A stretch of DNA of 64,000 nucleotides, from positions 32,001 through 96,000 of IMG/VR virus record IMGVR_UViG_3300034104_005543; one strand, 5' to 3'. Below, piece by piece: positions 5,193 to 56,330 of this stretch (its first letter is position 1; each line of letters begins with the position of its first letter). Position numbers and translations under genes: made by a program. The DNA is from a virus. Taxonomy: Duplodnaviria > Caudoviricetes. The notes beneath the pieces are model-generated. The model worked only from the letters and a program-made list of their open reading frames with translations. It searched no databases and was not told where the DNA came from.

Positions 5193-5312
5193 ATGAGTAT
5201 GTGTCCTAATTGTAAAGCATCTTTAGGTTGTAGTTGTAAACTTAGAAAGACTCCTAAAGGAACCCAAGTTTGCACAAACTGTCTTTCATTAGCTATATCC
5301 CAAGGAAAATGA
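5193..5312 (+). CDS. 39-aa six-cysteine micro-protein (absent from the ORF track)
   Basis: MSMCPNCKASLGCSCKLRKTPKGTQVCTNCLSLAISQGK*; starts 1 nt after the previous stop and its TGA overlaps the ATG at 5309. Confidence 0.7.
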   Translation: MSMCPNCKASLGCSCKLRKTPKGTQVCTNCLSLAISQGK

Positions 5313-5548: not shown

Positions 5549-5563
5549 TATTATATTAAGTAT

Positions 5564-6994: not shown

Positions 6995-6995
6995 T

Positions 6996-7547: not shown

Positions 7548-7567
7548 ATTAGTAGCTCTTTTGAGCT

Positions 7568-26771: not shown

Positions 26772-29651
26772 ATGGCTACTTTTATTCCTGGCGTAACTGA
26801 TTATATACCTCAGTTTCAGAACGATATACCAGATTTAGGGTTAATTCAACAGACTCTTAAAATTAAACAATCACAGTACGATGCTAATTATGCTAAAATA
26901 AAAAGCATACAGGATGGTATATTAAATGCGCAACTTACTAGAGATGATACTAAAGAAACTAGAAAAGCGTTTTTTGAAGCTGCTAATAAAGCAATCAAAC
27001 AAATTTCTACTGTAGATCTTAGTAAAGCTCAAAATGTTTCAGTAGCAGAAAGAATATTTGACCCGCTTATTAACAATCAACTTTTTATAGCAGATGCATC
27101 TAAAACTAAGATAGTAATGGCAGAATTACAAAAGGGTCAAGCTGCAAGAGATTGCACTGACCCTAAAAAGTGTAACGATGGTTATAATCCAGAAAGCGAT
27201 GAAGCACTAAATTATTGGTTAGAGAATTTTAAGAACATGACTCCTGATGAAGCACTTAAAGCAAATCCTAGAAGATATGTATATGATCCTAAGATAAGTA
27301 AAAGACTTACTGACCTTATTAAAGAAATAGAACCTAGCGCTACTATTACTGAAGTTCAAGGACAATGGATTGTAAAAACTAAAATGGGAGACCAAGTTCA
27401 AGCTCATCTAAATAGTATTTTACATAATGCTGTTGCTACAGATCCTCAAGTAGGTGAATACATGAGAAATAAAGCTTATGTTCAAAGAGAAAGGTTTATA
27501 AGAAGTTCAGGTTTACCAAGAGAACAAGCTGACGCAAACTATAATAACGAAATTTTAACAACTGTAGAAAAACAAAACACAGAAGATTTAAATAATATTA
27601 ATAAGTCTATAGAAGAAATACAGTTTAAAGGTAAAAAACTTGTTGAAGCATCTGGTGGTAAAGTACCTACTAATAGTAGCATTCTTCAAAGAATTGAACA
27701 GTTTGGTCAAATAATTCAAATGCTTGAAGCTAATAAAAAAAGTATTGAAGAAAGACAACAAGATTTTGAATTATTTAGACAAAATGCTAATTCTTCTAGA
27801 ATTGACGATCAAGTAGCATCAACATTATTAAGCAATCAAATAGGTTCTTTTGCTAAATCTTATAGTGCTCTTAAAAAAGAAGTTGATATTGAAGCTAATC
27901 CATATGCTGTAAATGAGCAAAAGTTTAATTACGATGTTGCTATAGAAAAAATGCGAGCTGAAAATGATAAAAATAATATTATTCTAAGAGCTCGCATGGA
28001 TATGGCTAAAGAGCAATTTAAATTTAATCTTGAAAATACTGCAAATATACCTGGTGTTACCCCTGAAGGAGGAGTACAGCTTATAAGTCAAGGTGAAAGT
28101 GCTACAAGACCTATAGATAAAATTGGAAAACATAATACGGACCAAGCTTTAGCATATGCAAGTCAGGCTCAAAAAGGACAAAAAGATTATTTGGTAAAAT
28201 TATATAGAAGTTTAAGTGTTGCTGATAGGAATAAACTATTTAAAAAACCAAATGGTGATCCTTATACAGTAGAAGAATTACAAAACTTAGACCCTAAAAC
28301 TTTACAAGAAACATCTAAAGGTAATGTTTCTCAACTAAGTCTTTTATATAGAACTGTAACAGGAGCTATAAGTAAAACACCTCCTACTACACTACCTCAA
28401 ATTCAAGGAGAACTAGCTGCATTACAAACTTCTATTAATTTAAATGAAACAGCATCTAAAGAAGCAATAAATGCTTTTAACAGTAATAAAGAATCAGTTA
28501 ATTTAAATCTAAATAAAAATCCTGATTTTGTAGGGTTAATGCAAACTATAATGAAAGGTAATGATCCTGAATTAAAAAAGTTATTTAGAATAAAAGATGG
28601 AAAAATAGATGTAGACGACTATAAATTATATCAACTTATATTAAAAGAAAGAGATCCTGCTCTTTTTTTAGCAAGTCAAAAAGTAACAATGTCTGGTGTG
28701 AATCCTATGGGAGGTATAGGAGTTGGTTTTGGTGCTGTAAAAGCCTCTGAGCGATTACAACTGTTAGAAAATTTAGAACAAGTTATAAGTAAAGCTAAAG
28801 ATGATACCTATAAATCTAATTCTAGCCAATTAAAAATAGTAGGTGCTAATTTAGATTTAGATCAATTAGGCAACCCTATAATATCATACCCTGCTATAGG
28901 AATTCCTACAACAGTTAGTAGTACGGATAATACAGCTGAGAAAAAAACAGCTCTTTCTATGCTTAACAGTTTAGATTATGTAGCTACTACAGAACCCGAA
29001 AGTAAAATAAAGTTTTATTATCCCGATGGAAATAAATATCAAGAACTTGAAGTTGGTGCCAATGTTATAGCTCAATTAAAAGCAGGGTTTTCAAATCCTC
29101 AAAAAAGTAATGTACTGCAAATCAATAGTATTGAAAGAAGCGAAAATCTTACATACAAAAAAGAATATGATGATTCTAAAGTACTTTATAAAATAAATAT
29201 TGCTCCTACTACAGCAGAAGCTATAGCAAAAACGACAGGAAAAACTGTACAAGAAGTTTCTCAAATTATTGTAGAAGTAGATAAAAATTCAGATAGAAGT
29301 AATTTTGTAAATGCTAGTTCTAATTTTAACGCTGCAAATACTATACTCAAAGGAGGAGGAAAAATAACTCAAACAATTGATGATCCTATTTCAGGAGATA
29401 AATATGAATTAAATATTTTTAGAGCAGAAGATGGTCAGATTTACAGTTATCTTAATTACAATGATGTTTTTAATGGTAATAGTTATTTACCTATAGGTAG
29501 TCTCGACCCTGAAGAATATATATTACAAGGTGTTCAAAGTATTAGTTCAGGTATAGCTACTAAGAATAATAAAGTAGCAAATGAAAATCAAAATTTACAA
29601 ACAAATTTTGTTTCAAAAACAGAGTTGTATAATTTACTAGGAATTAAATAA
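26772..29651 (+). CDS. putative ejection (DNA delivery) protein
   Basis: 959 aa, helical/coiled coil; PDLGLIQQTLKIKQSQYD N-terminus and EANPYA motif; directly precedes the giant proteins. Confidence 0.5.
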   Translation: MATFIPGVTDYIPQFQNDIPDLGLIQQTLKIKQSQYDANYAKIKSIQDGILNAQLTRDDTKETRKAFFEAANKAIKQISTVDLSKAQNVSVAERIFDPLINNQLFIADASKTKIVMAELQKGQAARDCTDPKKCNDGYNPESDEALNYWLENFKNMTPDEALKANPRRYVYDPKISKRLTDLIKEIEPSATITEVQGQWIVKTKMGDQVQAHLNSILHNAVATDPQVGEYMRNKAYVQRERFIRSSGLPREQADANYNNEILTTVEKQNTEDLNNINKSIEEIQFKGKKLVEASGGKVPTNSSILQRIEQFGQIIQMLEANKKSIEERQQDFELFRQNANSSRIDDQVASTLLSNQIGSFAKSYSALKKEVDIEANPYAVNEQKFNYDVAIEKMRAENDKNNIILRARMDMAKEQFKFNLENTANIPGVTPEGGVQLISQGESATRPIDKIGKHNTDQALAYASQAQKGQKDYLVKLYRSLSVADRNKLFKKPNGDPYTVEELQNLDPKTLQETSKGNVSQLSLLYRTVTGAISKTPPTTLPQIQGELAALQTSINLNETASKEAINAFNSNKESVNLNLNKNPDFVGLMQTIMKGNDPELKKLFRIKDGKIDVDDYKLYQLILKERDPALFLASQKVTMSGVNPMGGIGVGFGAVKASERLQLLENLEQVISKAKDDTYKSNSSQLKIVGANLDLDQLGNPIISYPAIGIPTTVSSTDNTAEKKTALSMLNSLDYVATTEPESKIKFYYPDGNKYQELEVGANVIAQLKAGFSNPQKSNVLQINSIERSENLTYKKEYDDSKVLYKINIAPTTAEAIAKTTGKTVQEVSQIIVEVDKNSDRSNFVNASSNFNAANTILKGGGKITQTIDDPISGDKYELNIFRAEDGQIYSYLNYNDVFNGNSYLPIGSLDPEEYILQGVQSISSGIATKNNKVANENQNLQTNFVSKTELYNLLGIK

Positions 29652-35600: not shown

Positions 35601-36919
35601 GTCAGTCAGTGTCGTTGTATAAAATGGCAACTACTGCATCCCAAAAAGATTTGTTTGTAGCTATTTACGGTATAAGTAAAACTGTGTTTAACAAAAATAT
35701 AGATTTACTAGAAGATGCTGTATCTACTAATGAAGATATATTAGATACTTTTAAAGGTAAACTTATATATGGTACTCCTGGAGTAGGAAAAACACAATTT
35801 ATAACTGAATACAACGCTCGTCCTGAAAGTCAAAGAAAACATACTCTTATAGATGTAGATGATTTACTAGTAGCTAGATTACAAGAACTTAATGCTAAAT
35901 TAGGTTTTGCTGGAGATTTAGAGTTTACAAACGAAAACTTATTTGCTATTATAAACAAGTTTGGGAAAACATTTGGTACTACAGAACGTACTAAAGAACT
36001 AGATAATCTTCTGTACAACCCGGTATTAGAAATCATAAAAAGTGAAAAAGCAAAAGGTTCTATCCTACTAACAGGAACAAAAAGATTTATAAAAGAAGCT
36101 GATATTGCTGTACTTAGTGAAGAACGTAGTAATATATTACGCGATAGGATAGTAACGGGTGAAGGAGATGTAAAAAAATACCTTGAAGCTGAAAACAGAT
36201 TTACTAAACAAGTAATAATACTAAAACAGGGACAACCATTCAGCGATGTATTAGTTAAAGGTATTGACGCAGTAGAAGCAGATGCTGCATTTAGACAACT
36301 AAAGCGTAATCTTTTTAATAGAATGATTTTTGATGACTTTACTTTAGTTAAACTTATTACAGAATTAAGTAAAGTAAATCTTAGTGAGCTTAATTCAAAC
36401 CAACTTGTAGATCTTTTCAATACAATAATAACTAAAGAATCTCCTTTTTATTCTGAGATTATAAGTTTAGATGGTAATATTGACGAAAAAAGTAAGGAAT
36501 TATTTAATTACTTCAAAACTTTTTACAATTCTAACGAGACTTCTGTTACAGATCGGAGTGTATTACTTAGAAAAATAATAGATGTTTTAAGTAACATTGC
36601 TCCTAACAGTATATCAATTACAGATTTAAATAATCCACTATCTAATTTTGCAGTACTTAGCTCTGTAAACGGAGACAATATAGAATATAATGTATTTTCT
36701 AGTATTGGTGCTGAACCTCAACTAAAATCACAGTCTATTTCTACTTTTGTAACAGCAGTCTCTAAAAACAGAAGTAAGATAATATCTTTTAGAGAAACAG
36801 TTCAAGGCGAAACTGAAAAGATTGATTCACCAGAAGCCGTAGGTAAAAATATAAACAACCTACCTAAACTTGATGAAAAAGATATCTTTAACAAACCTTG
36901 TGGACCTATTAATACTTAA
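29651..36919 (+). CDS. giant polyvalent ejection protein with PD-(D/E)XK nuclease and P-loop domains
   Basis: 2422 aa; hydrophobic Gly/Ala segments near 30160-30310; GTMDIIAV...LIDLKTS and QLNAY at 33278-33620; GTPGVGKT at 35771-35794; coiled coils. Confidence 0.65.
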   Translation: MDNFSDLQKDIDSAIYSAYQFGNVTGAPQNTTFNGDVAAQMLKENIKTTPSLVSTSGGVPSVYGDSQMNLTFERYYMHPNFSRLGYSPWRDNDRLYNENSSWLDNTSRSIKAMGHIAMESFGSNKPFISTLDLFDPLNYDEESAGSISRMMKLGYDTSGGLGAFTNNFLLNSGITLGITASALVEEAVIAGASALMAKTGVGIPAAVGTLGVGTAATIGKFARNIGKVFNANDLVFKLARNTDELKQVYDFSKMGRALDNKVVDFFNPLSNTAKLLKEYPETFKGLNALGKTATSFGAFYADARAAARVLNEAQMEGGLVLNQMVEDGIRKEYDATGQYPTEEKIAGIKEAAQNAAFATTMINLPLIFFSNKVGLDNIIKNLPKGKNLISALDDVKQFGSFSKIKGQGYKYLTSPLQKISAGARPVEIAKSFLNYTRYNFSEAIQENLQEATSAGVINYYKKLFENPMIDQHMLLKESVALGIGEQFTGQGLETFFSGFLTGGLMGGMGKIANLGINVGQRIYDPVAFKDYQDEKKKLKEELEESANYLDKNFLDLGRGPIDMINPNAVNAAQQSAASKTMNASNQTGNVKVSKDAQRLSLFEHVSNAIKGGFYNNIIDDYKSQLAVDDKTLAEAFGRDITEVPKLRSDISNAIADAENIKKLHDKYNFGNPVNLKSVSKDDPKYRQLLARYNAFETVRKMLIMSEDTIKDGAYRMNKITESLMTLLPEFGELDSDDILTLVDTFRLEAYKFDQIKQELELAKSTQSSPSTTPEDREKARIKEQYISRKLIALTDLHTKLKSFRSKKKTNTEFTDDERSALSGAYNAYISVLNQNPERKSSVVTTTNLDESLNYILDYISLESENELLTSIISVLQDPQGFATTVNDTTNYLEQILNDTSFVSKMVNRGVSLLEHNAIYNFMFTKFGVYVKEYEDGSVAFERPSANVVDALIPVDPLSEEYEEMLNAFFDKKEALSKIDATTEKIKKTKKVQADRVAKDKRDFETIKAALKKEDPSLSDEALDRKSRFILMIPQLRDLYIQDSVLDGLAQNIEDAASTPTTKEEVEEALKLLEAAKFIIVEDPDTGTSYYVQVDEEGNPLEESLEWKRVTSLYKTKEFGGTKKFTHRGNIIDGLLRALIGDKSLTKEQFKEAYVELQKENPEAFEFTDDNLTTLRSTLDNFIASIESQGYTLRANIPTLWGTIDGQNVAGTMDIIAVNDKGETLLIDLKTSSSNRRKAYAMEAALKKAAGNKYNLVKEKIIANGNKIKGDVSKGEKNLLNDSEIGDILNNFLSIEDDSKIKPYVDVNAIFFYKDSDENQLNAYADLLEQRTGIKVSGLFVLPLTIQDNNNNKTYTKIEAATEKINNKDRYALKVSRKQPIAPKIETTETPKTEEKEVVEEETLEEEPLTEEEIKLRDERVELINKTIGLLEKRKEKGVQSITNVENTLEYLKELLDETSELSFEEVKKILNTIKTLEEAISSNSARKSKRGQAISLSIEEYKKQFRTEKQLFNDIANRIKYLKEDLQQLKQIDKDLSDQINYYRNMIANKDFKTLSFEEIEEKIEIINKKKSVLEKIIASLLRVIKQSVFYLKEYVKITTKSINDLEIFKKNTNFKRLNTEELKKLIDAEDSSATTEYDKLRKQADELEKAIENNLDSIEIVEGAKQKEQERLDDLYNVVQKYNNQLRYLNNLLTVLYPDLAKIKLEKATAGKTAKEQVAPGVKKAPAPTAKPSPQKTEARLEDAKKEKAKAEKRTTKPKKEKPTTTPTAQPTVSDKKADVKGNLASQGTSIELEVIGETGKEFLLTVDRSGNISLWSEKQPDGTYRPGEGAPKEAIDKLYNKYIPEKTRIAITNWLNAFTGSWAASETEDGKKYDIAEKELNAELAALEGTGIEETDTTTNTSNIGPVSSIKLDTVYPIYKDNKQVGSVVLQSVNGIPAFVFTNSKGQVSTPSVITTLSNNFFNANEGLFEHWYNNILTDDNRQSVSLYKMATTASQKDLFVAIYGISKTVFNKNIDLLEDAVSTNEDILDTFKGKLIYGTPGVGKTQFITEYNARPESQRKHTLIDVDDLLVARLQELNAKLGFAGDLEFTNENLFAIINKFGKTFGTTERTKELDNLLYNPVLEIIKSEKAKGSILLTGTKRFIKEADIAVLSEERSNILRDRIVTGEGDVKKYLEAENRFTKQVIILKQGQPFSDVLVKGIDAVEADAAFRQLKRNLFNRMIFDDFTLVKLITELSKVNLSELNSNQLVDLFNTIITKESPFYSEIISLDGNIDEKSKELFNYFKTFYNSNETSVTDRSVLLRKIIDVLSNIAPNSISITDLNNPLSNFAVLSSVNGDNIEYNVFSSIGAEPQLKSQSISTFVTAVSKNRSKIISFRETVQGETEKIDSPEAVGKNINNLPKLDEKDIFNKPCGPINT

Positions 36920-36939
36920 AATTTTACTATATTTACCTT

Positions 36940-45900: not shown

Positions 45901-48117
45901 TTTTTGCGTGATATGGCACTTATAAATACTATGCCTTTATCAGTTTTAAGTGAAAAAAGTATAGGTAAGGGTACAACTAACATTGGTTATTTTATAAATC
46001 AATTTAAAGTAGCATATGGAAATATCTTATTACAATCATATCCTGTATTAAATAATATCAATACAAAAGTAAGAGATAGGTCTGAAAATCTAGAAGTTGA
46101 AATTATTGGTATCAAAGACAATTTAGAATACTACCGAAATCAAATACAAACTCTTATAGATCCTACAAAACAAGTAATGTCAAATAGCTTTGACAATATA
46201 ATATTAAGTGATATTTTAACTGGAGTAGGATTGTTTTCAGTAATGCAGAATAATACTAGTACAACTGCTAGTAAAGTGCAACAACTTTTTGTCAACAAGA
46301 GCTTGATGCGAAATTTAGCTACTATTTCATTAAGTAATAAAGAGTTAAACGATTTGTTGAATTCAATATTATCAGAAGTTATTGCTAAAAACAATCACAA
46401 AAAAATGGGTTATGTCTATGTACTTCCAGAAAAGAAACCTATAACTGCAAATACTTTAGATATAGTACCTTATAGAAATATTAAGACTACTAAATCTACT
46501 CTGTTTGTTGCAAAATCTGTTTCTACTTCTACTACAGATACTACACAAACTGCGGTAAGTACTCAACCCGAAACTGCTAGAACTATATATGATAAGATTA
46601 ATAAAGATAAAAAAACAAAGTCTACTAATGTAGAGATAGCAGGTCAAGGAGATTTATCTGATGTAAAGTATAGTGCAAAAACATTTTGGAGTGAAGTGGT
46701 ACCAGAAGCAAGAGCTTGGTTTGGAGATAACCTTATAATTGCATATAGAGGTAAAAAAACAAATACTTTCTTGCAAAACTATAAAGGTAGGCTTAGTGGA
46801 GAACCTGCATTAACAATAGGTAATCCTTTTGACTGGCAAGCTGAAACAGGTACCCGCGATGAACAAGGTATAAAATCTACTAAACGATTTATACACTGGA
46901 TGATTACTGGAGATAACATGGGTGTTACTGAAGCTACACCTGAATATAGGCAAGCTATTATTGATGATATTAAAAACGGTAAACTGAAAAATAGACCTAT
47001 TATATATTATCAAGAAAAAGGATATGCTACTCATGCTACAGCTTTAGATTATCTTATAAATGAGTATAATTGGAATCAACCTACTACACCTACTGTAAGT
47101 GAAGGTATTGAAATTAATTCTAAGCAAACAGGATTAGGAAATGATTTAACTAATGTACATTTTGCTACAAATGGTAAATCTAAATTTGATATAATCCCTA
47201 CAGATAAATCTTTAAAAAACCCTGACTCTGTTAAATTAGATAGTAATGATTTAGCGGTTAAGTGGGCAATAGATAAAGGACTAAAAACTTATGCTGATGC
47301 TTATGGTCAATCAGTAGAAGCTTGGTATAAATCAAACAATGCAATGTCAAAAGGCATTCCTAAAGGAACAGAAGGAGATGCTTATGATATGAAACTTATG
47401 ATAGGATTAATAACTGATAAGTTAAAACAATATCCTAATCTAGTTACACAAATTACAGAAAGAGGAGGTTTAGCGTTTTTAGATAAATCTACTCATACTA
47501 TGGGAACTGGTAGATGGTCTAGTAAAAATCCAAAAAATATGTTTATGAATGCTTTAAAACAGGCATATCAAAACGTATCTGCTACACCTACTGTAACTGC
47601 AAAACCTACTACTCAAACTCTAGAATCAAAAACAGAATTAGAAGTTTATATTCCTGATTATAGTTTAGCTGAATCTGTATATAACAATCTAAAAAGCAGA
47701 GAATCTAAAGGTGAGGATTTTATAAAGATTAAAAACGAACTGTATAAAAAATTCTACGATAATATTTCTCAGAAATACGATCAGATACCAAAAGATACTA
47801 ACTTTAACATTAGATATATGTTAGGCAATACAGTAATAGAATCAGCAAACATTGAAAATGAAGAAAGTATAAAAAAGACACTTGTTTATGATAATATACC
47901 TCTTGGAAATGATGATAGAAGCAAGCAAATAAATTCAATATTAAACGGCTTGTTATACATAAATGCTTTTGTTTTGTATCAAAAATTTGGTAAAATAAAT
48001 AAGCAGTTTTTACCTCCTAAACTGGTTGCTAAAATAATGGTTAGAGAAACCATCGAACAAGCAAACATAAGTGAGGACGAATTGAATAAAGTTTTAGAAG
48101 TTATAAGAAATTGTTAA
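36940..48117 (+). CDS. virion-packaged RNA polymerase (crAss-like, double-psi beta-barrel type) fused to zincin and accessory domains
   Basis: 3725 aa; RIP at 43441 and GGDFDVDKL (DFDVD 43558-43572) like the DFDxD motif of phi14:2 gp66; EADAQG motif; HEAWH at 38989. Confidence 0.85.
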   Translation: MNITATSCNITTEDLENFEVHFVTLYKTAFDDLKENENLNVKKFMQNYFKRVSEIVDNPSEKYEKALLATLVGSVALVNTARNPINKNYFPDYIVQQLGNIPWNIVDDSSKVKVTNYLDLIPAVKPVVAPVISARESDADYEASLFEINTMNIALLFQPTDSEFYNSNDLSKEVEQKNGIKAFRKFVDYFLSNSNKTVQDKDPVLENIYIRLFKIKDVDSSKIYGNPKGSEYVYLIVDSQGNPIYINDDGVIDSSGAYHAAFYSRIPDEVINNIDKYMDGSTDKVLLNLLIKRGMVLNPEKYKASTLSSSTDSNVITQIETEKEQYIQSLLASTRSIARFIKDRILEDPENNFMEIDTLNSRFGYLKYISKRADLAEKGDSFITDESGKFINGVQSIAYKPAKVLGKKQDARLVINDKFNVTIFLSNNKLGFAGDRTNPRLLPIVDALVELLTDDTILYGGVPLPTAEKNEILKQFYFQEITSAKAPIKHNTKNSNEALWTVTVSEKNSNEATVYKKGTDKEIFKQYLKQSLEANYLLNPANETIKIPTIIQDGDIKTLILKEISSADYIAQYFKLPITVTENSDKLPILNPTLAINFESPFTIKTKEVKEEFVDDELWMSKNIANLSTEKLNKKALEWFNTNPITKNIPLQQLFNIVNSGALATWSRAGVTLYSGSQYTDLYHEAWHEFTEMWFTPEQKQNLLSEVKKIKGKVTYYYKNEKITKLASEIDSYQEAMEFLADEYRMFAINESASVVTKTIKAIFKAIKNLLDSLFGKTTSLDNSINTFDNPVIKEIFTTLYTGDVKKLEAYRYDINQGTTDVLQRTIVGVGKKEERYKFTSQESILLQQAINSIVFDAALTQRDTKSQQGTIVGSVRLLFRSDKVERFHKLIAERFAEKQKTFEQLANNSETTNEDLKKSYREMASLFAVALRNLGSVEKLKDRTENQGIIKYYIEENEFINEIYNDDEEDFLAKDDGQYSDKGNNSTSLHSDFSPYLKLMFSIMPALKVFKENTLYVNDNLTEGIKKVGDYYYRVNMLSGEQSSIEAKDFLRLFNTPRHIVDENGNIIKSSSYVERDATGSPVALGNANIAISKLIETPGLTGTLKPLSLLTIIEAFAQKGTSVTDKSFFASVYGIIGGNAFTKWNSITIQKAQNQLQEKIKLYPEFYNNVKEHFYTYSSLVKSLSREKVPPIMVSISLDKDKKYTIESYIGNTEYISFWNKREVEYIDYTTKLPSEEQKRYGLVQVGTELKFNAQEFFNHPDNNKNYNPAANKQDVVFKYTDRDKIVNYLKLLGILNNSIVYPESLIIEMLKDSTIIDGLNALNIALFNYKQNLSEVPSILSLLKKGIAAIPDLKQLTLVEKVFSYANKIEITTNDYMYKDAKGDLVNEFSLQSSMMRYVQMYNDSDLKAELYQTPEENAFWVDSLLNKAIYGTNPKKFRLFLAGGITNDNNTGISENDNNVFTATIESIINLRIQNAYRMYQHSGKSTQYFISLDKQPFIQYNAADEMANNVFYNQMYNYFIAEAVRVYQTENGVSEGVEMFSKYGKEFLFFDYINDSTKTLVKKLIAENYNLEQPNVTEVINNVKQSLQNYKATIISEIKNEHEQRIEKAINAFAKIDNTILDNVDKAIKDTVGEESDGNGNKLYRHYYMNNTLFNMESHIFFYGDLANYQLSKDEFPKRNALLGSGGNPVYSDPEYRTLIKNIFDFSDTNDAIINLKKLPITILEDVKVGSENYSEYEKAVKTIIQDAKTAEKRVSPYKDGMKEADAQGIVLLDTYRMLSLASNNWSSVKEDYYNRIKNNQPLPINVSEFFPSLKYQFAGPATYIKDEKTGKLQMFTLKFNIIPLIPSVLKTKIGEVEKERYLNLVSKKLVTENIAMLTFVSGSKNSFLFDKESNIFYDDNGNLTESPFVKNYIDTTFFKDQLYIAPVFKEKSLVSSQKRTKILDLFYQNGKLTEKFARHKDLVEEYKKSIADATEIFKQKLSSTLQIDLNNPDKKALEKFAGYIKELLHKKGYITADETEMITIVDGAFAQDYLPSGLAVILDGIIANIIEKNILQQKFPGEPLIQVANTGWEFVETDPLKKRLKKDKVRYNNKLKSYRPGPDGTTLPGQVIISMQGGFYKLLNLTHTDGNPIGTVPRLNEMMGIESWKKEHMQKFIITGDRIPVHAHPSMEVLEIVEFIDSLQGNVIILPSEIVAKSGGDFDVDKLTLLYPTFDDAGNILEYSLDYNQSKERIKELSAKIKVEEKHTAAYYKLLRKILSAVAKDLKTTGFQNVGELASSNKADQYRKVVTKNEEAFAEYDDIELKADETLDSIAAKIEDINQKIDDIFNNKPELKTKEDKLTESEKQLIKTAEEYTNAVFYFKNIVGAIGNRINQNVAALLTVEELFPYLILPTTDENLKSIANSTENKQLSEFPIPSEKRKYSYITDPFESLLKLDYNSAGKKSLGIIAVFSSMLNEMAEANLRLPNGIMVKGGGFKVVKIPFMYRSTKETVDVLVDGEIKQIKIDALDYSSLTDLENNDKGDYTGQKIQASVDVEKDPWLLRLGIRKETASFQLGLTGASVKEGPLSIFLLNPMVNQFVRYTEISQTPLLPFFSNISDGVNSKLSTVSKFSKIISKRELTDLIKNSDYSDEIKQKAEKVLQKTFTKDNIIELNNIFYSTSIQKHESINFGASHYESKLNQAVGLIHYIAINEMFKDTINKLSFALRPDRQRFASILDFMIFDKKFEELYNSMPDFTREALLQIKEKSVRSSFYINTSTLPKALLELLSPMMIPVVNFIYEKHYKNKQFESQIPFKDTKAAIKLYSNIIRSTLLQKLLNSRYDNDVYKGFNIITSTEFTSDSNAVETAVLNNDFNILATSAIKVLEVKDELNNVVEKSIYVNKLNIALFAMSGAADKSNADFYINYGMAKPDSRIITSPKKLEKYLIEYEIAKNKYPISAFEKTIYYEQVYKNITEDVDYNKVTSTNKDVKKINYAYELFLRDMALINTMPLSVLSEKSIGKGTTNIGYFINQFKVAYGNILLQSYPVLNNINTKVRDRSENLEVEIIGIKDNLEYYRNQIQTLIDPTKQVMSNSFDNIILSDILTGVGLFSVMQNNTSTTASKVQQLFVNKSLMRNLATISLSNKELNDLLNSILSEVIAKNNHKKMGYVYVLPEKKPITANTLDIVPYRNIKTTKSTLFVAKSVSTSTTDTTQTAVSTQPETARTIYDKINKDKKTKSTNVEIAGQGDLSDVKYSAKTFWSEVVPEARAWFGDNLIIAYRGKKTNTFLQNYKGRLSGEPALTIGNPFDWQAETGTRDEQGIKSTKRFIHWMITGDNMGVTEATPEYRQAIIDDIKNGKLKNRPIIYYQEKGYATHATALDYLINEYNWNQPTTPTVSEGIEINSKQTGLGNDLTNVHFATNGKSKFDIIPTDKSLKNPDSVKLDSNDLAVKWAIDKGLKTYADAYGQSVEAWYKSNNAMSKGIPKGTEGDAYDMKLMIGLITDKLKQYPNLVTQITERGGLAFLDKSTHTMGTGRWSSKNPKNMFMNALKQAYQNVSATPTVTAKPTTQTLESKTELEVYIPDYSLAESVYNNLKSRESKGEDFIKIKNELYKKFYDNISQKYDQIPKDTNFNIRYMLGNTVIESANIENEESIKKTLVYDNIPLGNDDRSKQINSILNGLLYINAFVLYQKFGKINKQFLPPKLVAKIMVRETIEQANISEDELNKVLEVIRNC

Positions 48118-48118
48118 T

Positions 48119-50311
48119 ATGTTTTGTATAAATAAAAATTCAGAAGAGTTTAAGTCTCTTGTAGAAGAAGTAGGTTTTAGAGACGCTGTAGCATACTACT
48201 TAGCAAAAGGGTATATTATTGATGATACCGAGTTTACTTCTACTTCAGAAGAAGTAGAAGAAGTTAATAGCCTTTTTCAAAATACAAATTATTATAATTT
48301 AGAAAACACGGAGGTTAAAAGAAATATAAAAAACCTAGAAAAGCAGCTGCTAGATGGTTTTTTAGCTGAATATAATTTTACAGCAACCGAGTATGAAAAC
48401 TTAAAACAAGAACTAGGAATAGACTCTTATACAGCAACAGATTTAATAACAAAATCTATTGCATACGAAAAAGGAGAATCTATTTTACCAGAGGTTGCAT
48501 ACATTGCCTATTCAATTTTAGGTAAACAAAACAACAAAATTAGATCTGATTTAAGATACCTAGTAAACAAATGGAGCAAATACACTGAAAGGTTTAACTA
48601 TCATAAAAAAATAATATCAAAAAAAGAAGGGTTTATTGATGATAAAAAAGAATGGCGAACAAAAATAAAAGACCTAGTAATACTAGACTTTTTAAGAGAA
48701 AATATAGAAAAATATTACTTTAACGATAATGAATTCACTAAAATTAATGATTCAAAATGGACAAAAGAAGATTTTACATTGTGGGAAAAAATAATTAGAG
48801 CAATAGAAAAATTCTTAGAAAAACTTAATATAATGTCAGATGAGCGGAAAATAGAGAAACTTAAAAATATAGGTTTATCTATTGCTAGTGAAATACTTAC
48901 AAATAATTATCAATATTATAATTACAATTTATCGCAAGATCAAATAAGAAAATATTATAAAAATACAATTCAAAGCGATCCTTTTGCTAAAGAATTAGTT
49001 GAATTTGTTCAGTCTAAAATAGGACTTATTCTTACTGGATCTTTAGCTTTAAGAAAAGCAGGTTCTGTTTACAGAACTATTATTGAAACTTTACATGATA
49101 TAGATTGGGTTGTGCCTTTTGAAAAAACGTACACTCCTACTAACATGGATGCGTACAATAGAATTATTAATGGAGAACCTGAGTTTATATTAGATGAATA
49201 TATAGAAAGTCTAAAGATAGATGATGTTGCAAGAAATGTATTATATAATATTCAAAAATTAGATTGGTTTCAAGATTTCATAGAAAAATACCCATCTTTT
49301 GAATTTACGGGTGGTTTTTATGGAGGAGAACATACTAAAAAAGAAAGTTTTACAGCGCAAGGTGTTGTAAACGGAGAATTTTATACTGAGGATGGTACTC
49401 ATGAACAAGAATTTACTTTTTACAGTAAAGATCCTATTACAAAGAAACCTATAAAAGTAACTGAAAAAAGTATAGTTAATCATAGAAAAGGTGAATATAT
49501 AAAAGGAACAGGATACGCAATTGATTTTTTTGTACGATTACAACCCCATCAAGAACAACATGAAAATTATTTTAAACTATGGAAAGAAATAATGATTGCT
49601 AAAATTAGAATGGGTAGAGATAAAGATTTTATAGACTGGAAAGCATTTGTTCCATATCTTAAGTCAACCAATTCATTTAATTTTAATTATGAAGGTTTTC
49701 GACATTTCAATTACGAATCTTCCAAAACAAATTTATTAGAAGAATATATAGTAGATACATTAGAAACTGTAGAAGAACAAGAAACATCTACTGGTATAAA
49801 ACCAGGAGTACAAGAACTAATGGATTTTAATAGACCTGTAGTAGATACTAAAGAAAAAGCATCTCCTGTAGTAGAAGAGTTAATGACCCCTGAACAAATA
49901 GAAAAACAGCGTGACTTTGAAGATTTAGTTGAAAAAGCTAGATTAGATGAAGAAATGGGTATAGATAGGTTTGGCGATTCGTTTGGTCCTGAAACTATTA
50001 GTTTGCAAAAAGGGTATATTAACCCTAATACAGAACCAGTTCTCTATCAAACGTATGTAAATAAATACAATGAAGAAACAGGTAATAACATCACCGGGTA
50101 TGAATTCCTAAAAGATGATGAAGAAGACATTTTTGATATGTCACCTTTCTATAAATTCTTAGACGAAAATGATTTGCAAGGTTTAGACTTACGTTACTAT
50201 GAAAGAGGCGTAGTAAATTTTGAAGAATTTAACCAAGATGTGATAAAAAATAATAACTTTAACAAAGGGATTGACCCTATTGCAGGGTTTCCTGTTCCAC
50301 CAAGTTGCTAA
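48119..50311 (+). CDS. virion-associated protein with nucleotidyltransferase-fold domain
   Basis: 730 aa; LTGSLAL...HDIDWV, AIDFFV and K..MGRDKDFID motifs. Confidence 0.55.
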   Translation: MFCINKNSEEFKSLVEEVGFRDAVAYYLAKGYIIDDTEFTSTSEEVEEVNSLFQNTNYYNLENTEVKRNIKNLEKQLLDGFLAEYNFTATEYENLKQELGIDSYTATDLITKSIAYEKGESILPEVAYIAYSILGKQNNKIRSDLRYLVNKWSKYTERFNYHKKIISKKEGFIDDKKEWRTKIKDLVILDFLRENIEKYYFNDNEFTKINDSKWTKEDFTLWEKIIRAIEKFLEKLNIMSDERKIEKLKNIGLSIASEILTNNYQYYNYNLSQDQIRKYYKNTIQSDPFAKELVEFVQSKIGLILTGSLALRKAGSVYRTIIETLHDIDWVVPFEKTYTPTNMDAYNRIINGEPEFILDEYIESLKIDDVARNVLYNIQKLDWFQDFIEKYPSFEFTGGFYGGEHTKKESFTAQGVVNGEFYTEDGTHEQEFTFYSKDPITKKPIKVTEKSIVNHRKGEYIKGTGYAIDFFVRLQPHQEQHENYFKLWKEIMIAKIRMGRDKDFIDWKAFVPYLKSTNSFNFNYEGFRHFNYESSKTNLLEEYIVDTLETVEEQETSTGIKPGVQELMDFNRPVVDTKEKASPVVEELMTPEQIEKQRDFEDLVEKARLDEEMGIDRFGDSFGPETISLQKGYINPNTEPVLYQTYVNKYNEETGNNITGYEFLKDDEEDIFDMSPFYKFLDENDLQGLDLRYYERGVVNFEEFNQDVIKNNNFNKGIDPIAGFPVPPSC

Positions 50312-50314
50312 AAA

Positions 50315-53300
50315 ATGAATTGTTCTATTGATAATTTTCGTGATAATGTAACAAAACAAATGTTACAGTATGGTTTTGCAGTTGCTGCGTCTAAGTATTC
50401 AAGTAATCCAACTTTACAAAACGCTATAAGAAACGGAATAAGCACTAATCAAATACCAAAAAAGATTTCTATAGGTAATAAATCATATAGAGGTTTTGAT
50501 ATAGCTAAAAAAATTGCAGATGCTATAAACCAAGGTTGGAAATCTATGGTAGCTAATGTTGCAACTGTAAATGATACACATTCTATAAACATAAACATTA
50601 GTCCTGATATGATGAAGCTTCTAGAAGCTGCTGATTTTACTGCAGAAGAAAGAAGCGCTTTTAACGACATAGCTCCGGGTTATGCTAATAGTCTAGAAGA
50701 AGAAGCTATATTAAAGTATGAGAGTATGAAAAGCTCTGATATTGATAAACTAGTCTCTGCACAAGCTAATAATTTTTTGAGTTCTGTTTTAAGTACTTTA
50801 AAGCGTGCTTTTCCTACAGTAAACTACCAAATTGTAAGTGATACAGATGCTAGAGAAATTACAAAGAATTCTGCTAACCCCTACACAGGTCAGGGTGTAT
50901 CTTTTTTCTACAATGGTACCGTTTATATAATAGAAGGTAATGTAACACCCAAAACATTAATTCACGAGTTTCTGCATCCCTTAGTTAAGTCAATAGAAGT
51001 AGAAAACCCAGGATTGTTTGATAATTTAGTTAATGAAAGTAAAACTGTAGATAACACTTATGGACTTGAAGTAGGAAAAAGACTACAAGAAGAAATAGAT
51101 GAAGACCCTGAAACTTTTTCCTTTGACAATAATGCGTATAAAAGAGAATACGTAACAAGAGTATTGGAAAGAATCGCTAGTGAAAGATTACTAGAAAACA
51201 GAGAAGATGGTATTCTATATAACTTTTTTAACAAAGTTTTCTACGCTTTGAAACAGATATTCAGAAAAGTATTTGGTTCTAAAATTAATGTAAGTAAATT
51301 ATCAGCTTATACTTCACTTTCAGATTTAGCTGAAATGCTTAAAATGAGTGAGTTTAATCTTAATGCTGAGTTATTTACTACTGAAGATTATGTAGAGTAC
51401 TTAAGTAAAGTAGAAGAAGAAATAAATAAAACAGCAGAATTATTAGCAGACTCTGTAAAGTATAATAAAGAAGCTGCAAAAGATCCTCGTAATATAAAAT
51501 TTGGACTCTCAAATCTTGATGACCTGATTAAACAGTTAGAAACTTTAGTAGATAATAATACTGAATACTTCAAGAATAACAATATGATAGATCCTGAATT
51601 AAATGCTATTATATTTAATTCCGAAACTGGTAATCTCGAAAAAATAAAAGAAGAGTTAAGACTAAATAAAAAGTTTCTTGTACAAGAACAACTGGATCTT
51701 AGTGAAGATATTAGAAATGCTTTAAACGCAGAAAAAAACGATGCTCAAAAAGCATACCGGTTAATATCAAGTATATTTGAAATTCAAGCGTTAATCTACA
51801 ATTTAGCAGGACCTGATAAAACAGTACTTATTGATAAAACATCAACTGATGATTTTAAACAAAATTTAGTTTTGATAGAAAAACTAGAAGGTATGTTACG
51901 ATCATTTCAAACATTAGCTCAAAGTGTAAATTCTATCATTGTTAAACTTGATCGTAATAATCAATTAGCACAATCTCTTAACCAAACAATAGAATATTCT
52001 GAAAATGGTCTAAATCAACTTAAAAAACAAAGGTTTAACAATATAAAAGAAGTAATAAATGTACCCTTGTCTGCTATAAATGATACGATTCAATCTTTAT
52101 ATAATGATCTAATTGAAAAAATAGATGAAGAAATAGCAACTAAAGGATCTAATAGTTTATTGGAAAAAAGAAAAGAGTATTATATTAAAACTCGCGACTC
52201 TTTAATGGTTTCCGAAAAAAGATTAGAAGATTTATTACAAGGTAAAGCGGGAGACTCTGATTTCTTAGAAGGTTATATTCTGTCTGCAGTACAATCTTCA
52301 GATCCAATTTACGGTACCCTTGGTAGTATTGTAAAAAACGCTTACAATAATATAGAGGCTAACATGGTTAATGTTTATTCCTCATACTTTAAAGATTTAA
52401 ATGAATTACAAAACAAAGCAGGAATAACAAAATTTAACTACTCTAGTAAATACAGGCAAATAATTACAGAAGCTACTAGACTAGTTAGAACTGTTGAAGA
52501 AGGAGAAAGTAATAAAGAAGTAACGCTTGAAGAAAAAAGTGACTACTTTGAGTTTTTACATTCTACTTTAGTTTCACAAGCAACTAATGATATAAGAAGA
52601 TTAGAAGCAGAAAAAGAAGATGCTTCTAGAAATAATGACTTGATTACAGTAGCTGAAAAGTCTAGAGAGATATCAGAGTTAAAAGATAAATACTTTTTTG
52701 GTTCTGTTTTAGAAGGACACAATATCAGAAAACAAATGCTTTCTACAGAGTGGGGCGTAAGAATGTTTATCAAACGACTTAAGATAGAAGACAACATTCG
52801 TGTTTTAGAACTTGTTATAAAAGCTGAACTAGCATTAAACAATCCTGAAGCCCGACAAAATATTATAGATAAACAAGAACAAATAAAAGAACAGTATATA
52901 TTATTAAATGAAATAACTAGCATATACAAAAAAAATGGTGAGGTTAAAACAGGGCAAGAATACCAAGATGCTATAGACTATAAAAATTTTTATACTGTTA
53001 CAGAAAGCAATTTAGAAATAGAAAGAGAAGAAACAATACAAAAATTTGTCGAAGCTTATAAATTAAACGAAGAACTATTAGGTGCAAACACTCCTGAATT
53101 TGGTCAATGGTTAGCTGAAAACACTTATATAAAAAGAAAAGATGAATATTTTTCATTAGTTCAGCAAATATTTGACAACATAGGTGAGACAAACAATAAG
53201 TCTACCAGTTTTACAGCAAAACTTAAAGACTTAAATAATGAACGATCTGCTTTAGGTAAACAGTTAAGTCAATTAAGAATATTGTATTCTGATCCTAGAA

Positions 53301-56290
53301 CAAAAATGATGCTCATTGACCAAATGACACCAGAAGCTGTAAAAAAAGTAAATGACATTGAGCAAAGATTATTTGAAATAGGTATAGAAATAGATGTAGA
53401 AAGAGGACTACCTAAAAATATAAAAAGGAAAGATATTGAGCTATTACACACAGTAAGGAAATTGTATGCTGGAGATTACGAATATGAATCAACAGATCCT
53501 CCTGTTATTAAATCACTCAAACAAAACAATTTTAGATTGTATGAAAAATATATTGCCATAAGTGAAGCACTAAAAGAATTCAGAAGCGAACAACCTTCTA
53601 ATGTAGAGCAAGAATATATAAATGGTGAGTGGGGTAAATTCTACGATATTCAATACAAAGGTAAAACAGTTGCTTATGAAATGTATAAAAAAGAAGCTAT
53701 TCAAAATATAAACAACGGAATTTATGTTGATATAGCTTTTATTAACACAGATACTAATTTCATTAAAGCTTTAGAGAATAAAGATTTTAGAAAATTTATA
53801 GAAGACCATCATACTAAATTTGAAATAGAAGAGGAAGGTACTGTATCATTTGCTTATGTTCCAAACGGAATTCACATTGAACAAAAAATCAATGACAATT
53901 ACAAGGACATGGTTGAATTTAGAAACAGTAAAGGTGAACTTGTAAAAACAAACTTTCCTTCAAGAAATTATCACGCTTTAAGAACCAAAGAAGCAGTTAA
54001 AACTCCTCGCATAATGGGAGTAACAGTAAATGCTTTTGGTGAATGGTTACCTAAACCTATTGAAGTATTGTATGCAGAATCTAAGGGTAATAAAATAACT
54101 ACTGAGTTCTTAGAAAATATTCCTGACATGTCAGATTCTGAATACAATTCATTTATTAATGACAATGAGGAGTTAACTAAGTATGTAAATAAAGAATACT
54201 ATAACTTAAAAAAGACTGATAAAGATCTCTGGAATCTACTAGAATATCTAAAGAAAATGTCTTTTACACAGCAAAAAGAAACTTCAAAAATGGGAAGACT
54301 TAATTTTCAAGTACCTTCTTTTTTTGCTAGTAATTTTGAAGTTGCTCAAAAAACATTATCTGGACAAAAACGATCTGGGTTATCAGTATTCTTATCTTCT
54401 ATTAAAGCAAAGCTTTTTGGTAAAGAGGGAGATGAAGCTGAAGAAGGATACTCTAATGTTCTTTCTGCTGAAACAGAAGAAGAAAAACGCACTAGACTTA
54501 AACTTATATCACTAGACTTTTTTGGTGATGAATTATCTAAGATACCTGTAGCAGGAAAATATCCTATTGACTTAGATAAAGTAAGTATGGATATTCCTTT
54601 ATCTATGTTCAGATACTTCTATAGTATAGAAGAAGTAAAAGAAAAAGTAAAAATAATGCCTATTGCTAGAGGTATTGAAAAAGTATTGGCTGATGAAGAA
54701 AACGCGTTGAAAGAAATGGATAAAATTAATAAATATGCATTTCTTCAAAACAATCTTACAATCTTTGCAGGTGCTAAAAGCAAAAAAGAAGCTAGTATTA
54801 GAAAACAAATGGTAGAATCTTTTAACCGCACTATATTTGAAGGTGAAAATGTTAGAGGATTTTTATCAGATGCAACACCTATATTGAAAATACTAAATAA
54901 TGTAACAAGATTTACATCGACTGTATTTCTTTCTACTCCAGAATCTGCTATAAGAAACAGAGTACAAATGGGCATGCAAAATATAATAAACCTTGCAGCA
55001 CAAGATGGAGTTGATAGAGAAAGTTACACTAAAGGTGAAATATGGGCAACTAAATATATGTTTGGTCAAACAACACACGCATATCAAGGAGGTACATATA
55101 CCTTTGAACAAATGATGGTTGATGCTTGGGACCCAAAACAAGGTAGCTCAAAGCAAAGAATAGGTCGTAGTTTTAATAGATCATACGCGCAAGATGCTGC
55201 AGATTGGCAATCATTTGTACTAGCACCAAGAACTTGGTTAGAAACACAAGGTGCTATAAAATTATGGGCTCAACGTATGTTCTATGAAAAAGTAGAAATA
55301 ACAGAAAATGGCGTTACTACTAAAATACCATACATGGAAGCATGGTATATAGTTGATGGTAAACTAACACTTAGACCAGGTATTGACAAAACATATGATG
55401 TAGAAGGAGTAAAGTTCAACCTGATCAAAAACAGAATTCACCAGCAAATTGCTTTAACCAACGGTGATTCATCAGCTTTAGGTAAAAGTTATGGAGATAA
55501 GTTTGTTATCTACAATCAGCTTCTTAGTATGAAAAGATTCTTTTATATGATGTTTTTGAATCGTTTTGGTACTAATTTTAAATATGATAAAGAAAAATCT
55601 TTTTTTGATGCTTGGTCTTTTTCACCACGGCTTAACTATTCAACAGGAGAAACTCAAGAAGGATACTATATAACATCGCTACGATTCATAGCAAATTACT
55701 TTAGGAATATTTTTACTAAAAACCCTAATTTTAATATTTACTGGAGTATGCTTACTCCGTATGAAAAAAGAAATTTAATTAAAACATTTAGTGATATAAT
55801 GCTTTCTTTAGTCTTATGGTTAATTGGTAGAATGTTATTTGAGTATGACCCCGATGATGAAGATCGCTACAAAAAATTAAGAGCTAATTCAGCACCACTA
55901 CCTATATTTGGTACAGCAGACGAAGGACAGTTTCATTTAGAAGGTTACGCTTTTAATAAAGCTCTTCAGCTTATATTAGGTTTTCAAGAAGAACATAATA
56001 CTTTTATGCCTTTACCCGGTATGGGTTTAAAAACATACACCAATTTATTTCAAATTAAAATGGCTACCTTTCAACCTAGTGCTGATCTTATTAAAAATGT
56101 AATAACATATAGTATGTTAGGAGCAACTGGTGACGAAAGAGGTTTTTATGATAAAAGAGTCGGTCCTTATGAATGGCAACAAAAAGATTCTGCTAAGATT
56201 GTAAACTTTATGTTAAAGTATATTGGACTATCAGGAACTTCTACAGATCCTGTGTTAGGTATCCAACAAAGAGAGTCTTTTGCTCGATAA
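50315..56290 (+). CDS. giant ejection protein with zincin-like domain
   Basis: 1991 aa; FFYNGTVYI...TLIHEFLHP (H at 50963) plus downstream E; hydrophobic helix near the C-terminus; last gene of the late module. Confidence 0.6.
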   Translation: MNCSIDNFRDNVTKQMLQYGFAVAASKYSSNPTLQNAIRNGISTNQIPKKISIGNKSYRGFDIAKKIADAINQGWKSMVANVATVNDTHSININISPDMMKLLEAADFTAEERSAFNDIAPGYANSLEEEAILKYESMKSSDIDKLVSAQANNFLSSVLSTLKRAFPTVNYQIVSDTDAREITKNSANPYTGQGVSFFYNGTVYIIEGNVTPKTLIHEFLHPLVKSIEVENPGLFDNLVNESKTVDNTYGLEVGKRLQEEIDEDPETFSFDNNAYKREYVTRVLERIASERLLENREDGILYNFFNKVFYALKQIFRKVFGSKINVSKLSAYTSLSDLAEMLKMSEFNLNAELFTTEDYVEYLSKVEEEINKTAELLADSVKYNKEAAKDPRNIKFGLSNLDDLIKQLETLVDNNTEYFKNNNMIDPELNAIIFNSETGNLEKIKEELRLNKKFLVQEQLDLSEDIRNALNAEKNDAQKAYRLISSIFEIQALIYNLAGPDKTVLIDKTSTDDFKQNLVLIEKLEGMLRSFQTLAQSVNSIIVKLDRNNQLAQSLNQTIEYSENGLNQLKKQRFNNIKEVINVPLSAINDTIQSLYNDLIEKIDEEIATKGSNSLLEKRKEYYIKTRDSLMVSEKRLEDLLQGKAGDSDFLEGYILSAVQSSDPIYGTLGSIVKNAYNNIEANMVNVYSSYFKDLNELQNKAGITKFNYSSKYRQIITEATRLVRTVEEGESNKEVTLEEKSDYFEFLHSTLVSQATNDIRRLEAEKEDASRNNDLITVAEKSREISELKDKYFFGSVLEGHNIRKQMLSTEWGVRMFIKRLKIEDNIRVLELVIKAELALNNPEARQNIIDKQEQIKEQYILLNEITSIYKKNGEVKTGQEYQDAIDYKNFYTVTESNLEIEREETIQKFVEAYKLNEELLGANTPEFGQWLAENTYIKRKDEYFSLVQQIFDNIGETNNKSTSFTAKLKDLNNERSALGKQLSQLRILYSDPRTKMMLIDQMTPEAVKKVNDIEQRLFEIGIEIDVERGLPKNIKRKDIELLHTVRKLYAGDYEYESTDPPVIKSLKQNNFRLYEKYIAISEALKEFRSEQPSNVEQEYINGEWGKFYDIQYKGKTVAYEMYKKEAIQNINNGIYVDIAFINTDTNFIKALENKDFRKFIEDHHTKFEIEEEGTVSFAYVPNGIHIEQKINDNYKDMVEFRNSKGELVKTNFPSRNYHALRTKEAVKTPRIMGVTVNAFGEWLPKPIEVLYAESKGNKITTEFLENIPDMSDSEYNSFINDNEELTKYVNKEYYNLKKTDKDLWNLLEYLKKMSFTQQKETSKMGRLNFQVPSFFASNFEVAQKTLSGQKRSGLSVFLSSIKAKLFGKEGDEAEEGYSNVLSAETEEEKRTRLKLISLDFFGDELSKIPVAGKYPIDLDKVSMDIPLSMFRYFYSIEEVKEKVKIMPIARGIEKVLADEENALKEMDKINKYAFLQNNLTIFAGAKSKKEASIRKQMVESFNRTIFEGENVRGFLSDATPILKILNNVTRFTSTVFLSTPESAIRNRVQMGMQNIINLAAQDGVDRESYTKGEIWATKYMFGQTTHAYQGGTYTFEQMMVDAWDPKQGSSKQRIGRSFNRSYAQDAADWQSFVLAPRTWLETQGAIKLWAQRMFYEKVEITENGVTTKIPYMEAWYIVDGKLTLRPGIDKTYDVEGVKFNLIKNRIHQQIALTNGDSSALGKSYGDKFVIYNQLLSMKRFFYMMFLNRFGTNFKYDKEKSFFDAWSFSPRLNYSTGETQEGYYITSLRFIANYFRNIFTKNPNFNIYWSMLTPYEKRNLIKTFSDIMLSLVLWLIGRMLFEYDPDDEDRYKKLRANSAPLPIFGTADEGQFHLEGYAFNKALQLILGFQEEHNTFMPLPGMGLKTYTNLFQIKMATFQPSADLIKNVITYSMLGATGDERGFYDKRVGPYEWQQKDSAKIVNFMLKYIGLSGTSTDPVLGIQQRESFAR

Positions 56291-56291: not shown

Positions 56292-56330
56292 AGAAAAAAA
56301 AATCCCCCTACCTTTTTAGGGGTAGGGGGA
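56292..56330 (-). terminator. rho-independent terminator at the convergence of the two modules
   Basis: TCCCCCTACC...GGTAGGGGGA 10-bp stem (56303-56330); A run at 56294-56302 gives a U tail on the - strand. Confidence 0.8.

Follow-up and report, generated by a model that had tools for sequence, protein, structure and literature searches.

The stretch analysed here (the window) comprises 64,000 nucleotides (nt) of a virus of the Caudoviricetes (Duplodnaviria) and corresponds to bases 32001-96000 of the 115,486-base IMG/VR record IMGVR_UViG_3300034104_005543, which is rated 97% complete. The + strand gene run of the window was found to close with four giant open reading frames (ORFs) encoding proteins of 2422, 3725, 730 and 1991 amino acids (aa), whose cysteine (Cys) residues were found only beside the ends at which consecutive proteins face one another. 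The ORF starts were taken as the first ATG past the upstream in-frame stop, with translation by table 11; positive Cys positions are counted from the N-terminus and negative positions from the C-terminus. The four chain members and their three junctions are as follows.

29651..36919, + strand: chain member 1, 2422 aa, 271 kDa; sole Cys C2417 (codon 36899-36901), at -6 from the C-terminus.
36940..48117, + strand: chain member 2, 3725 aa, 424 kDa, predicted crass-type virion RNA polymerase (RNAP); Cys only C8 (codon 36961-36963) and C3725, the last residue (codon 48112-48114).
48119..50311, + strand: chain member 3, 730 aa, 86 kDa; Cys only C3 (codon 48125-48127) and C730, the last residue (codon 50306-50308).
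50315..56290, + strand: chain member 4, 1991 aa, 229 kDa; sole Cys C3 (codon 50321-50323).
36899..36963, + strand: junction 1, ...NKPCGPINT and stop, 20-nt spacer, MNITATSC...; genes in different frames.
48112..48127, + strand: junction 2, ...VIRNC and stop, 1-nt spacer, MFC...; genes in different frames.
50306..50323, + strand: junction 3, ...PPSC and stop, 3-nt spacer, MNC...; genes in the same frame, with TAA and one codon between them.

The translation of the four ORFs was found to contain six Cys in 8868 aa, every one of them within 8 residues of a facing terminus, and the N-terminal Cys was absent from the 2422-aa protein as was the C-terminal Cys from the 1991-aa protein. The initial annotation had mapped six Cys to these codons in a chain following the gene order, had put the size at roughly 1 MDa and had allowed that a recount could bring up many internal Cys; the recount of the translations returned exactly the same six with none internal in the 8868 aa, and the combined mass was computed as 1010 kDa. 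From the position-specific base composition about 97 Cys codons were expected for the four genes against the 6 observed, and the other two frames of the same genes contained 133 and 448 TGT/TGC triplets. Cys made up 0.07% of the residues (6/8868) in the chain proteins and 1-4.6% in the other ORFs of the window, and the chain proteins were thus found to show the Cys suppression of phage ejection proteins, in which Cys lies far below the rest of the proteome. Given this shortfall against the composition-based expectation, selection has acted against interior Cys, and the six facing termini have retained theirs. For six uniformly placed Cys, the chance that each lands no more than 8 residues from one of the facing termini (48 positions in total) was found to be 2.5e-14, and 3.9e-16 when one Cys per facing terminus was required.

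The four proteins are identified, on motifs and on similarity to reference crassvirus proteins, as the predicted packaged RNAP cargo (ejection) module of Crassvirales, split into four polypeptides with the RNAP second of four. The counterpart modules, gp67-gp66-gp65 of phi14:2 (10.1101/2020.03.07.982082) and gp47-gp50-gp49 of PhicrAss001 (PMC10172136), were detected in virions. The 3725-aa protein is assigned by similarity to the crass-type virion RNAP family of phi14:2 gp66 and PhicrAss001 gp50, and the following motifs were located in the module.

43558-43572, + strand: catalytic DFDVD at RNAP residue 2207, in the context SGGDFDVDKL.
38989-39003, + strand: zincin-like HEAWH at RNAP residue 684.
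50963-50977, + strand: HEFLH at residue 217 of the 1991-aa protein.

The window DFDVD was found to align with DFDID at residue 1361 of phi14:2 gp66 and DFDVD at residue 1483 of PhicrAss001 gp50, and the alignment columns D58, D60 and D62 of the catalytic motif were invariant in 10 sequences. With RNAP residues 2001-3725 as the tblastn query, matches were found in 10 crassvirus records (23-31% identity, E 5e-9 to 3e-6), in which the genes matched by this second half of the protein were annotated as putative RNAP, and blastp of the RNAP against cr4_1 aligned 985 residues at E 1e-14. RNAP residues 662-830, with HEAWH, matched a cr4_1 region with HEAFH, which corresponds to the HEAFH at residue 2157 of PhicrAss001 gp47. 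Residues 1770-1945 of the 1991-aa protein resembled PhicrAss001 gp49 and phi14:2 g065 by blastp. The N-terminal domain of the 730-aa protein (about 550 aa) was conserved at 43% mean column identity with C3 invariant, and in the RNAP C-terminal alignment, at 26% mean column identity, the terminal Cys was one of two invariant columns. The window has in common with phi14:2 and PhicrAss001 the DFDxD motif, the zincin-like HEAxH region, the gp49/g065-like C-terminal part and the terminal-Cys pattern, whereas it differs in having four polypeptides instead of three, a polymerase of 3725 aa instead of 2180-2412 aa, and a first break placed, with respect to the zincin motif, at least about 850 residues further upstream.

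The Pfam search gave no match in any of the four chain proteins. The RNAP gave none in Pfam, PHROGs or PDB sequence searches (PDB 0), and the only PHROGs match found was a weak exonuclease-type one at residues 1201-1383 of the 2422-aa protein. Nothing was listed by phmmer of the window proteins against reference phage proteins, though blastp gave matches. The 730-aa protein matched nothing among the INPHARED phages by tblastn, no relatives came from the related-locus search with the N-terminal 900 aa of the RNAP, and the 2422-aa protein was matched in only 1/5 related records; the divergence of the chain proteins is thus too rapid for simple searches to follow.

Eight IMG/VR loci related to the 730-aa protein were collected and five of these records were extended to the whole module, with the following chains.

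Window: 2422 / 3725 / 730 / 1991 aa.
G001: 4431 / 1329 / 2014 aa, with TGA read as tryptophan.
G002: 2295 / 3597 / 2339 aa.
G003: 4101 / 2224 aa.
G004: more than 2134 / 3557 / 575 / 1613 aa.
G005: 4277 / 525 / 1711 aa.

Across the window and the five relatives, 13/13 junctions were found to have a single Cys no more than 8 residues from each of the two facing ends (26/26 termini); no first protein contained an N-terminal Cys, no last protein contained a C-terminal Cys, and only 4 internal Cys were present in the chain proteins. The 730-like and 1991-like parts were found to be fused in G001, G002, G003 and L005, the fused protein keeping only its N-terminal Cys, and the 53-59% identity between the fused G003 and the split G005 in these parts indicates that the change was recent. 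In G001 the RNAP itself was cut about 180 aa past the catalytic motif, with a new Cys pair at that cut. The chain genes of G001 contained three in-frame TGA and read as one ORF if TGA encodes tryptophan.

The reference crassviruses were found to contain the following Cys in their cargo proteins.

phi14:2: g067, 1797 aa (C-1); g066, polymerase (C3, C-2); g065 (C3); 5398 aa in total, whose 4 Cys all lie at facing termini.
PhicrAss001: gp47 (C-3); gp50 (C5, C1334, C-9); gp49 (C5).
Rudgehvirus: 2018 aa (C-2); 4098 aa (C3 and three internal).
cr4_1: 4491 aa (C-4 and six internal); 1803 aa (C3).

In PhicrAss001 the Cys pair was present although gp47 is encoded on one strand and gp50 and gp49 on the other, which excludes a signal in the junction DNA and means that adjacency in the DNA is not needed. 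One cargo gene of cr4_1 contained 38 in-frame TAG.

A profile of the RNAP catalytic region was run against IMG/VR in two rankings, led by the window sequence (survey 1) and by Rudgehvirus (survey 2), which gave 539 and 552 confirmed matches, respectively, and the best 80 of each ranking were surveyed with 10-kb flanks. The survey ORFs were begun at the first ATG after a stop, the code (table 11, TAG as glutamine or TGA as tryptophan) was picked by the length of the ORF with the motif, and a junction was defined without regard to Cys as a same-strand neighbour of at least 500 aa no more than 1 kb from the RNAP ORF. Cys within 25 residues of the end was found on both sides of 94/94 unique RNAP-flanking junctions in survey 1 and of 57/58 in survey 2 (151/152 over 160 loci), and there were zero junctions with Cys on one side only. 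The sole exception was L169, in which the RNAP ORF begins 137 residues before the motif and the junction contained no Cys; the relative L164 is continuous there, and L169 is most likely a broken gene. The survey 1 Cys offsets ranged from -1 to -9 (mode -1) and from +3 to +6 (mode +3). At the outer ends of the survey 1 chains, Cys was found in the last 25 residues of 0/43 complete last C-termini and at 1/12 complete first N-termini (L044), and 273/316 Cys in 448,393 aa were within 25 residues of a complete terminus, the three totals including a 197-aa ORF of L046 that is not a true chain member. The controls relied on were the chain ends, the fused forms, the other Cys-free neighbours and the one broken ORF; in a Cys-rich control set of 49 ORFs, too small and too strongly skewed by a few very Cys-rich proteins to be of use, 31% and 33% were found to contain a terminal Cys.

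Most junctions were tight, with gaps of -8 to +20 nt, and at junction 3 of the window a single TAA interrupts an otherwise shared reading frame, as would fit facing Cys that are a nucleotide by-product of tight junctions (TGY in a translational coupling or re-initiation signal), an artefact of ORF calling or chance. Such an origin is very improbable, as the facing Cys sit at differing offsets (-1 to -21 and +3 to +8) in genes whose relative frames also differ, and as the Cys pair was kept across gaps of 524-555 nt, across an inserted ORF and with the partner gene on the other strand. The placement chance in the window (about 2.5e-14) also argues against it, as do the Cys-free neighbours just upstream of the chain in the same operons, where no Cys was found on either side (five survey cases and the junction of the 959-aa and 2422-aa proteins in the window), and the broken-ORF junction of L169, which lacks Cys.

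Translational-coupling and lipoprotein readings of the terminal Cys were considered and rejected. A split intein with protein trans-splicing was ruled out, the Cys lying 0-8 residues from the ends with no room for halves of about 100 aa and about 35 aa, and likewise by the absence of any Pfam match in the four proteins.

Several chains were found to include short link proteins (169-172 aa) whose only Cys are C4 and C-3. At about 12870-13380 in L045, L049, L052, L054, L058 and L082, a protein of 169-190 aa with exactly C4 and C-3 stands between chain members and, by its sequence, looks like a genuine small chain link. The 197-aa ORF of L046 (14548-15141), also between chain members, contained a GIY-YIG-like motif recognised by eye and looks like a homing endonuclease; the Cys pair spans this ORF. 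Many survey loci need TAG to be read as glutamine, and recoding was found in the cargo genes of L001/L002 (G001), L021 (cr4_1), L068, L086, L093, L132-L145 and others.

Gene fusion was followed through the distance of each end of the RNAP ORF from the catalytic motif, a definition that contains no Cys, and terminal Cys was found as follows.

N side, start 1000-2500 aa before the motif: 78/78.
N side, start 2500-3000 aa before the motif: 12/15.
N side, start at least 3000 aa before the motif (fusion with the upstream protein): 1/33.
C side, end less than 1500 aa past the motif: 84/84.
C side, end 1500-2500 aa past the motif: 32/36.
C side, end at least 2500 aa past the motif: 1/31.

The fully fused ORF of L140 (5812 aa) contained no terminal Cys at either end. 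The zincin-like motif was found after junction 1 in the window (RNAP residue 684) and before the gp47/gp50 junction in PhicrAss001 (gp47 residue 2157), and the Cys pair therefore follows the break and not a homologous position. That the C-terminal and N-terminal Cys are strictly coupled, disappear together on fusion and are missing from the ends of the chain argues for joint action of the two residues. The initial annotation had proposed that consecutive proteins are paired and that orthologous blocks should contain Cys at the facing termini, tracking fusion and fission. The blocks bore this out, the pair being present where genes are split and lost where they are fused, and the pairing of consecutive cargo proteins through facing terminal Cys is strongly supported by these sequence comparisons (window and relatives, references, surveys and fusion test).

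It is quite unlikely that each terminal Cys acts alone, as an anchor to a third virion protein, an acyl carrier or a processing signal, with the neighbours left unlinked. Such solitary action would fit the one orphan N-terminal Cys (L044), the partner genes of PhicrAss001, which are not adjacent, and the tail and portal-vertex proteins of PhicrAss001, which use disulfides (PMC10172136), whereas the presence of both Cys at 151/152 junctions and of a single Cys at none, the chain ends without Cys (0/43 and 1/12) and the removal of both Cys at once by fusion all argue against it, and a strict C-to-N alternation would be needless for a third partner.

The cargo proteins are probably joined head to tail by disulfides into one thread, a reading that draws on the sequence pattern and on analogy. 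The facing C-terminal and N-terminal Cys of consecutive proteins would form an intermolecular disulfide in the assembled virion, and the separately translated pieces would in this way be connected covalently, without branches, into a single thread of about 1 MDa. Its side stubs, no longer than about 9 residues, would be small enough to fit a narrow tail channel. Internal Cys would be selected against because any further disulfide would introduce knots or branches into a chain whose ejection requires unfolding, and the reducing cytoplasm would cut the links so that the proteins, including the polymerase, separate. It is plausible that the thread serves ordered packaging and ejection, with release by reduction in the cytoplasm. 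A disulfide is the most likely link because each end contains a single Cys with no conserved co-ligand nearby, because virion proteins of PhicrAss001 show disulfides (PMC10172136), and because gp27 and gp26 of cyanopodophage A4, with the same signature, are disulfide-bonded by cryo-EM (PMC12002296).

The pre-ejectosome of A4 contains the disulfide gp27 Cys1715-gp26 Cys5 in the cryo-EM map of the virion, and its authors speculate on a "chain reaction" at ejection (PMC12002296). In the A4 genome (Anabaena phage A-4L, NC_024358), the only Cys of gp27 (1717 aa) was found at -3 and that of the neighbouring gp26 (1114 aa) at +5, and this signature, an upstream protein with a sole C-terminal Cys and a downstream protein with a sole N-terminal Cys, was found at the three window junctions. 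A4 is like the window in the adjacent genes of two large ejection proteins with these facing Cys, whereas it has one link, two proteins and no RNA polymerase and belongs to a different phage family; where the A4 paper discusses the bond, it treats it as the stabiliser of one interface and not as a general rule tracking gene fission (PMC12002296). No blastp match at E <= 0.01 was found between A4 gp26-gp29 and 241 crass chain proteins, and hhalign of the 730-aa-protein alignment against A4 gp26 and of the RNAP C-terminal alignment against the gp27 C-terminus gave a probability of 0.1%. With no homology found between the A4 and crass proteins, the relation is one of working alike and not of membership, and the shared signature would be convergence or an undetectable kinship.

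N4-type virion RNA polymerases are single-subunit, T7-like enzymes unrelated to the crass type. The N4-like ejection proteins (Schitoviridae: N4 gp50, DEV gp71-gp73) resemble the window set in a giant virion RNA polymerase with companion ejection proteins and are almost without Cys, in line with the initial annotation, which had called them Cys-free; the scarcity is explained by passage through the oxidising periplasm (PMC11445570). They are unlike the window set in that the parts of this source concerned with Cys report no retained terminal Cys and ascribe the few Cys to annotation errors (PMC11445570). In PhicrAss001 virions inter-subunit disulfides form, and the cargo must partly unfold to exit, in agreement with the unfolding assumed at the outset (PMC10172136). 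The phi14:2 preprint describes three cargo proteins that are fused in some phages, the fused polyproteins being "likely cleaved" (10.1101/2020.03.07.982082). In the main texts of PMC10172136 and 10.1101/2020.03.07.982082 the word "cysteine" occurs 0 times, and "disulfide" occurs 0 times in that of the latter. The claim that such linkage had not been described holds in part: the full-text literature search found no description of terminal-Cys chaining for crassviruses or of multi-link chains including an RNA polymerase, but a single bond of this kind has been published for A4 (PMC12002296). New here is that the pattern extends across the order, comprises several links, takes in the virion RNA polymerase and varies with gene fission.

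Several points weigh against the disulfide thread. The survey loci are interrelated, so that their counts are not independent events, and their ORF starts were called by rule (first ATG). The sole C-terminal-side Cys was found at -19 in L032 and at -21 in L050, and 1-6 internal Cys were present in PhicrAss001 gp50, Rudgehvirus and cr4_1. The giants of Intestiviridae-like gut phages contained 6-22 internal Cys, the range being 3-22 over the fused polymerase and gp49 proteins (4070-4852 aa) of L105-L135; these loci keep a C-2 / C+3 junction pair with the upstream protein, so that Cys suppression is much weaker in them and the junction pair is retained, and the rule of Cys at the termini only is strict in the clade of the window and in phi14:2 and relaxed elsewhere. 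The L044 polymerase (1034-12760) contained an orphan N-terminal Cys with a Cys-rich 261-aa ORF as its upstream gene, and its partner may be encoded elsewhere, as in PhicrAss001. In L103/L177 (13764-20192) a 583-aa member with C3 and C-63 was followed by a 628-aa ORF with four Cys and then by a protein starting with MSC. The disulfide itself is argued from sequence and from analogy with the non-homologous A4 proteins. Because the host cytoplasm is reducing, bond formation would have to take place in the capsid or once release has occurred; in the phage's own 97%-complete genome, no match to a thioredoxin fold was found. The search of the phage genome for Erv1/ALR was likewise without a match, the control genomes being equally so. 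Complex prediction for junction 2, pairing the C-terminal 250 aa of the RNAP with the N-terminal 550 aa of the 730-aa protein, gave a score of 0.08 with the mark at 0.32 in a run without controls and speaks neither for nor against the link.

The reducing host cytoplasm and the missing thioredoxin and Erv1 matches (the latter with silent controls) also count in favour of a facing Cys pair that holds a shared metal ion, as the initial annotation had also considered, or another bridging group, the link being made already in the cytoplasm for 1:1 co-packaging, and the co-variation of Cys with gene fission fits any Cys-Cys link. A bridging group is unlikely, as only one Cys is available per terminus, the flanking residues show no conserved His, Cys or Asp partner, and a stable Zn or Fe site would normally call for more than two thiolates; moreover, the only solved case of the signature, A4, is a disulfide (PMC12002296), and disulfides are present in crassvirus virions (PMC10172136).

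Taking the disulfide thread as the preferred reading, a wider proposal is put forward tentatively, at somewhat less than even confidence: the polymerase module would be delivered throughout Crassvirales as one redox-cleavable train, in which the gene order would be the ejection order and the cytoplasm would uncouple the train and activate the polymerase, the A4 device having arisen independently. A giant gene could then be cut at almost any linker, and the disulfide clasp would restore covalent continuity for packaging and threading. Crassviruses are among the most abundant human gut viruses, and how they pass about 5 MDa of cargo, a giant RNA polymerase included, down a narrow tail is an unsolved problem (PMC10172136). 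If true, a reducible covalent link would explain the 1:1 ratio and fixed order of separately made proteins as well as the tolerance of the module to repeated gene fission and fusion, and would refine the accepted reason why ejected proteins avoid Cys. Terminal-Cys pairs in otherwise Cys-free neighbours may offer a simple signature for ejection-protein sets in metagenomic and uncultured phages.

Just upstream of the chain, the 959-aa protein (window 26772-29651) was found to contain only two Cys, C128 and C134, which were at the same two positions in its 1057-aa counterpart in G002. Closely spaced lone Cys pairs were also found in PhicrAss001 gp45 (C390, C398), phi14:2 g069 (C369, C378) and A4 gp28 (C1036, C1039), and blastp among these lone-pair proteins and the 959-aa protein found no homology; a pair of this type may form a small loop disulfide or an inter-copy link.

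Farther upstream, the large proteins at 15043-20736 (1897 aa), 22314-24341 (675 aa) and 24359-26701 (780 aa) were entirely free of Cys and probably represent further ejected or cargo proteins outside the chain, and the relatives of the window show the same Cys-free genes ahead of the chain. Amid this Cys-free block, the 270-aa protein at 20766-21578 contained CxxC at residues 8-11, followed by residues 188-264 with 51% identity to residues 73-142 of the Rudgehvirus "gene49" protein, and the 242-aa protein at 21584-22312 contained four CxxC pairs (10/13, 39/42, 59/62 and 88/91) and looks, from this spacing, like a zinc ribbon. Directly past the last chain gene, where the + block meets the - block, a G+C-rich inverted repeat (CCCCCTACC ... 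GGTAGGGGG) was found at 56300-56330 which, judged by eye, looks like a two-way terminator.

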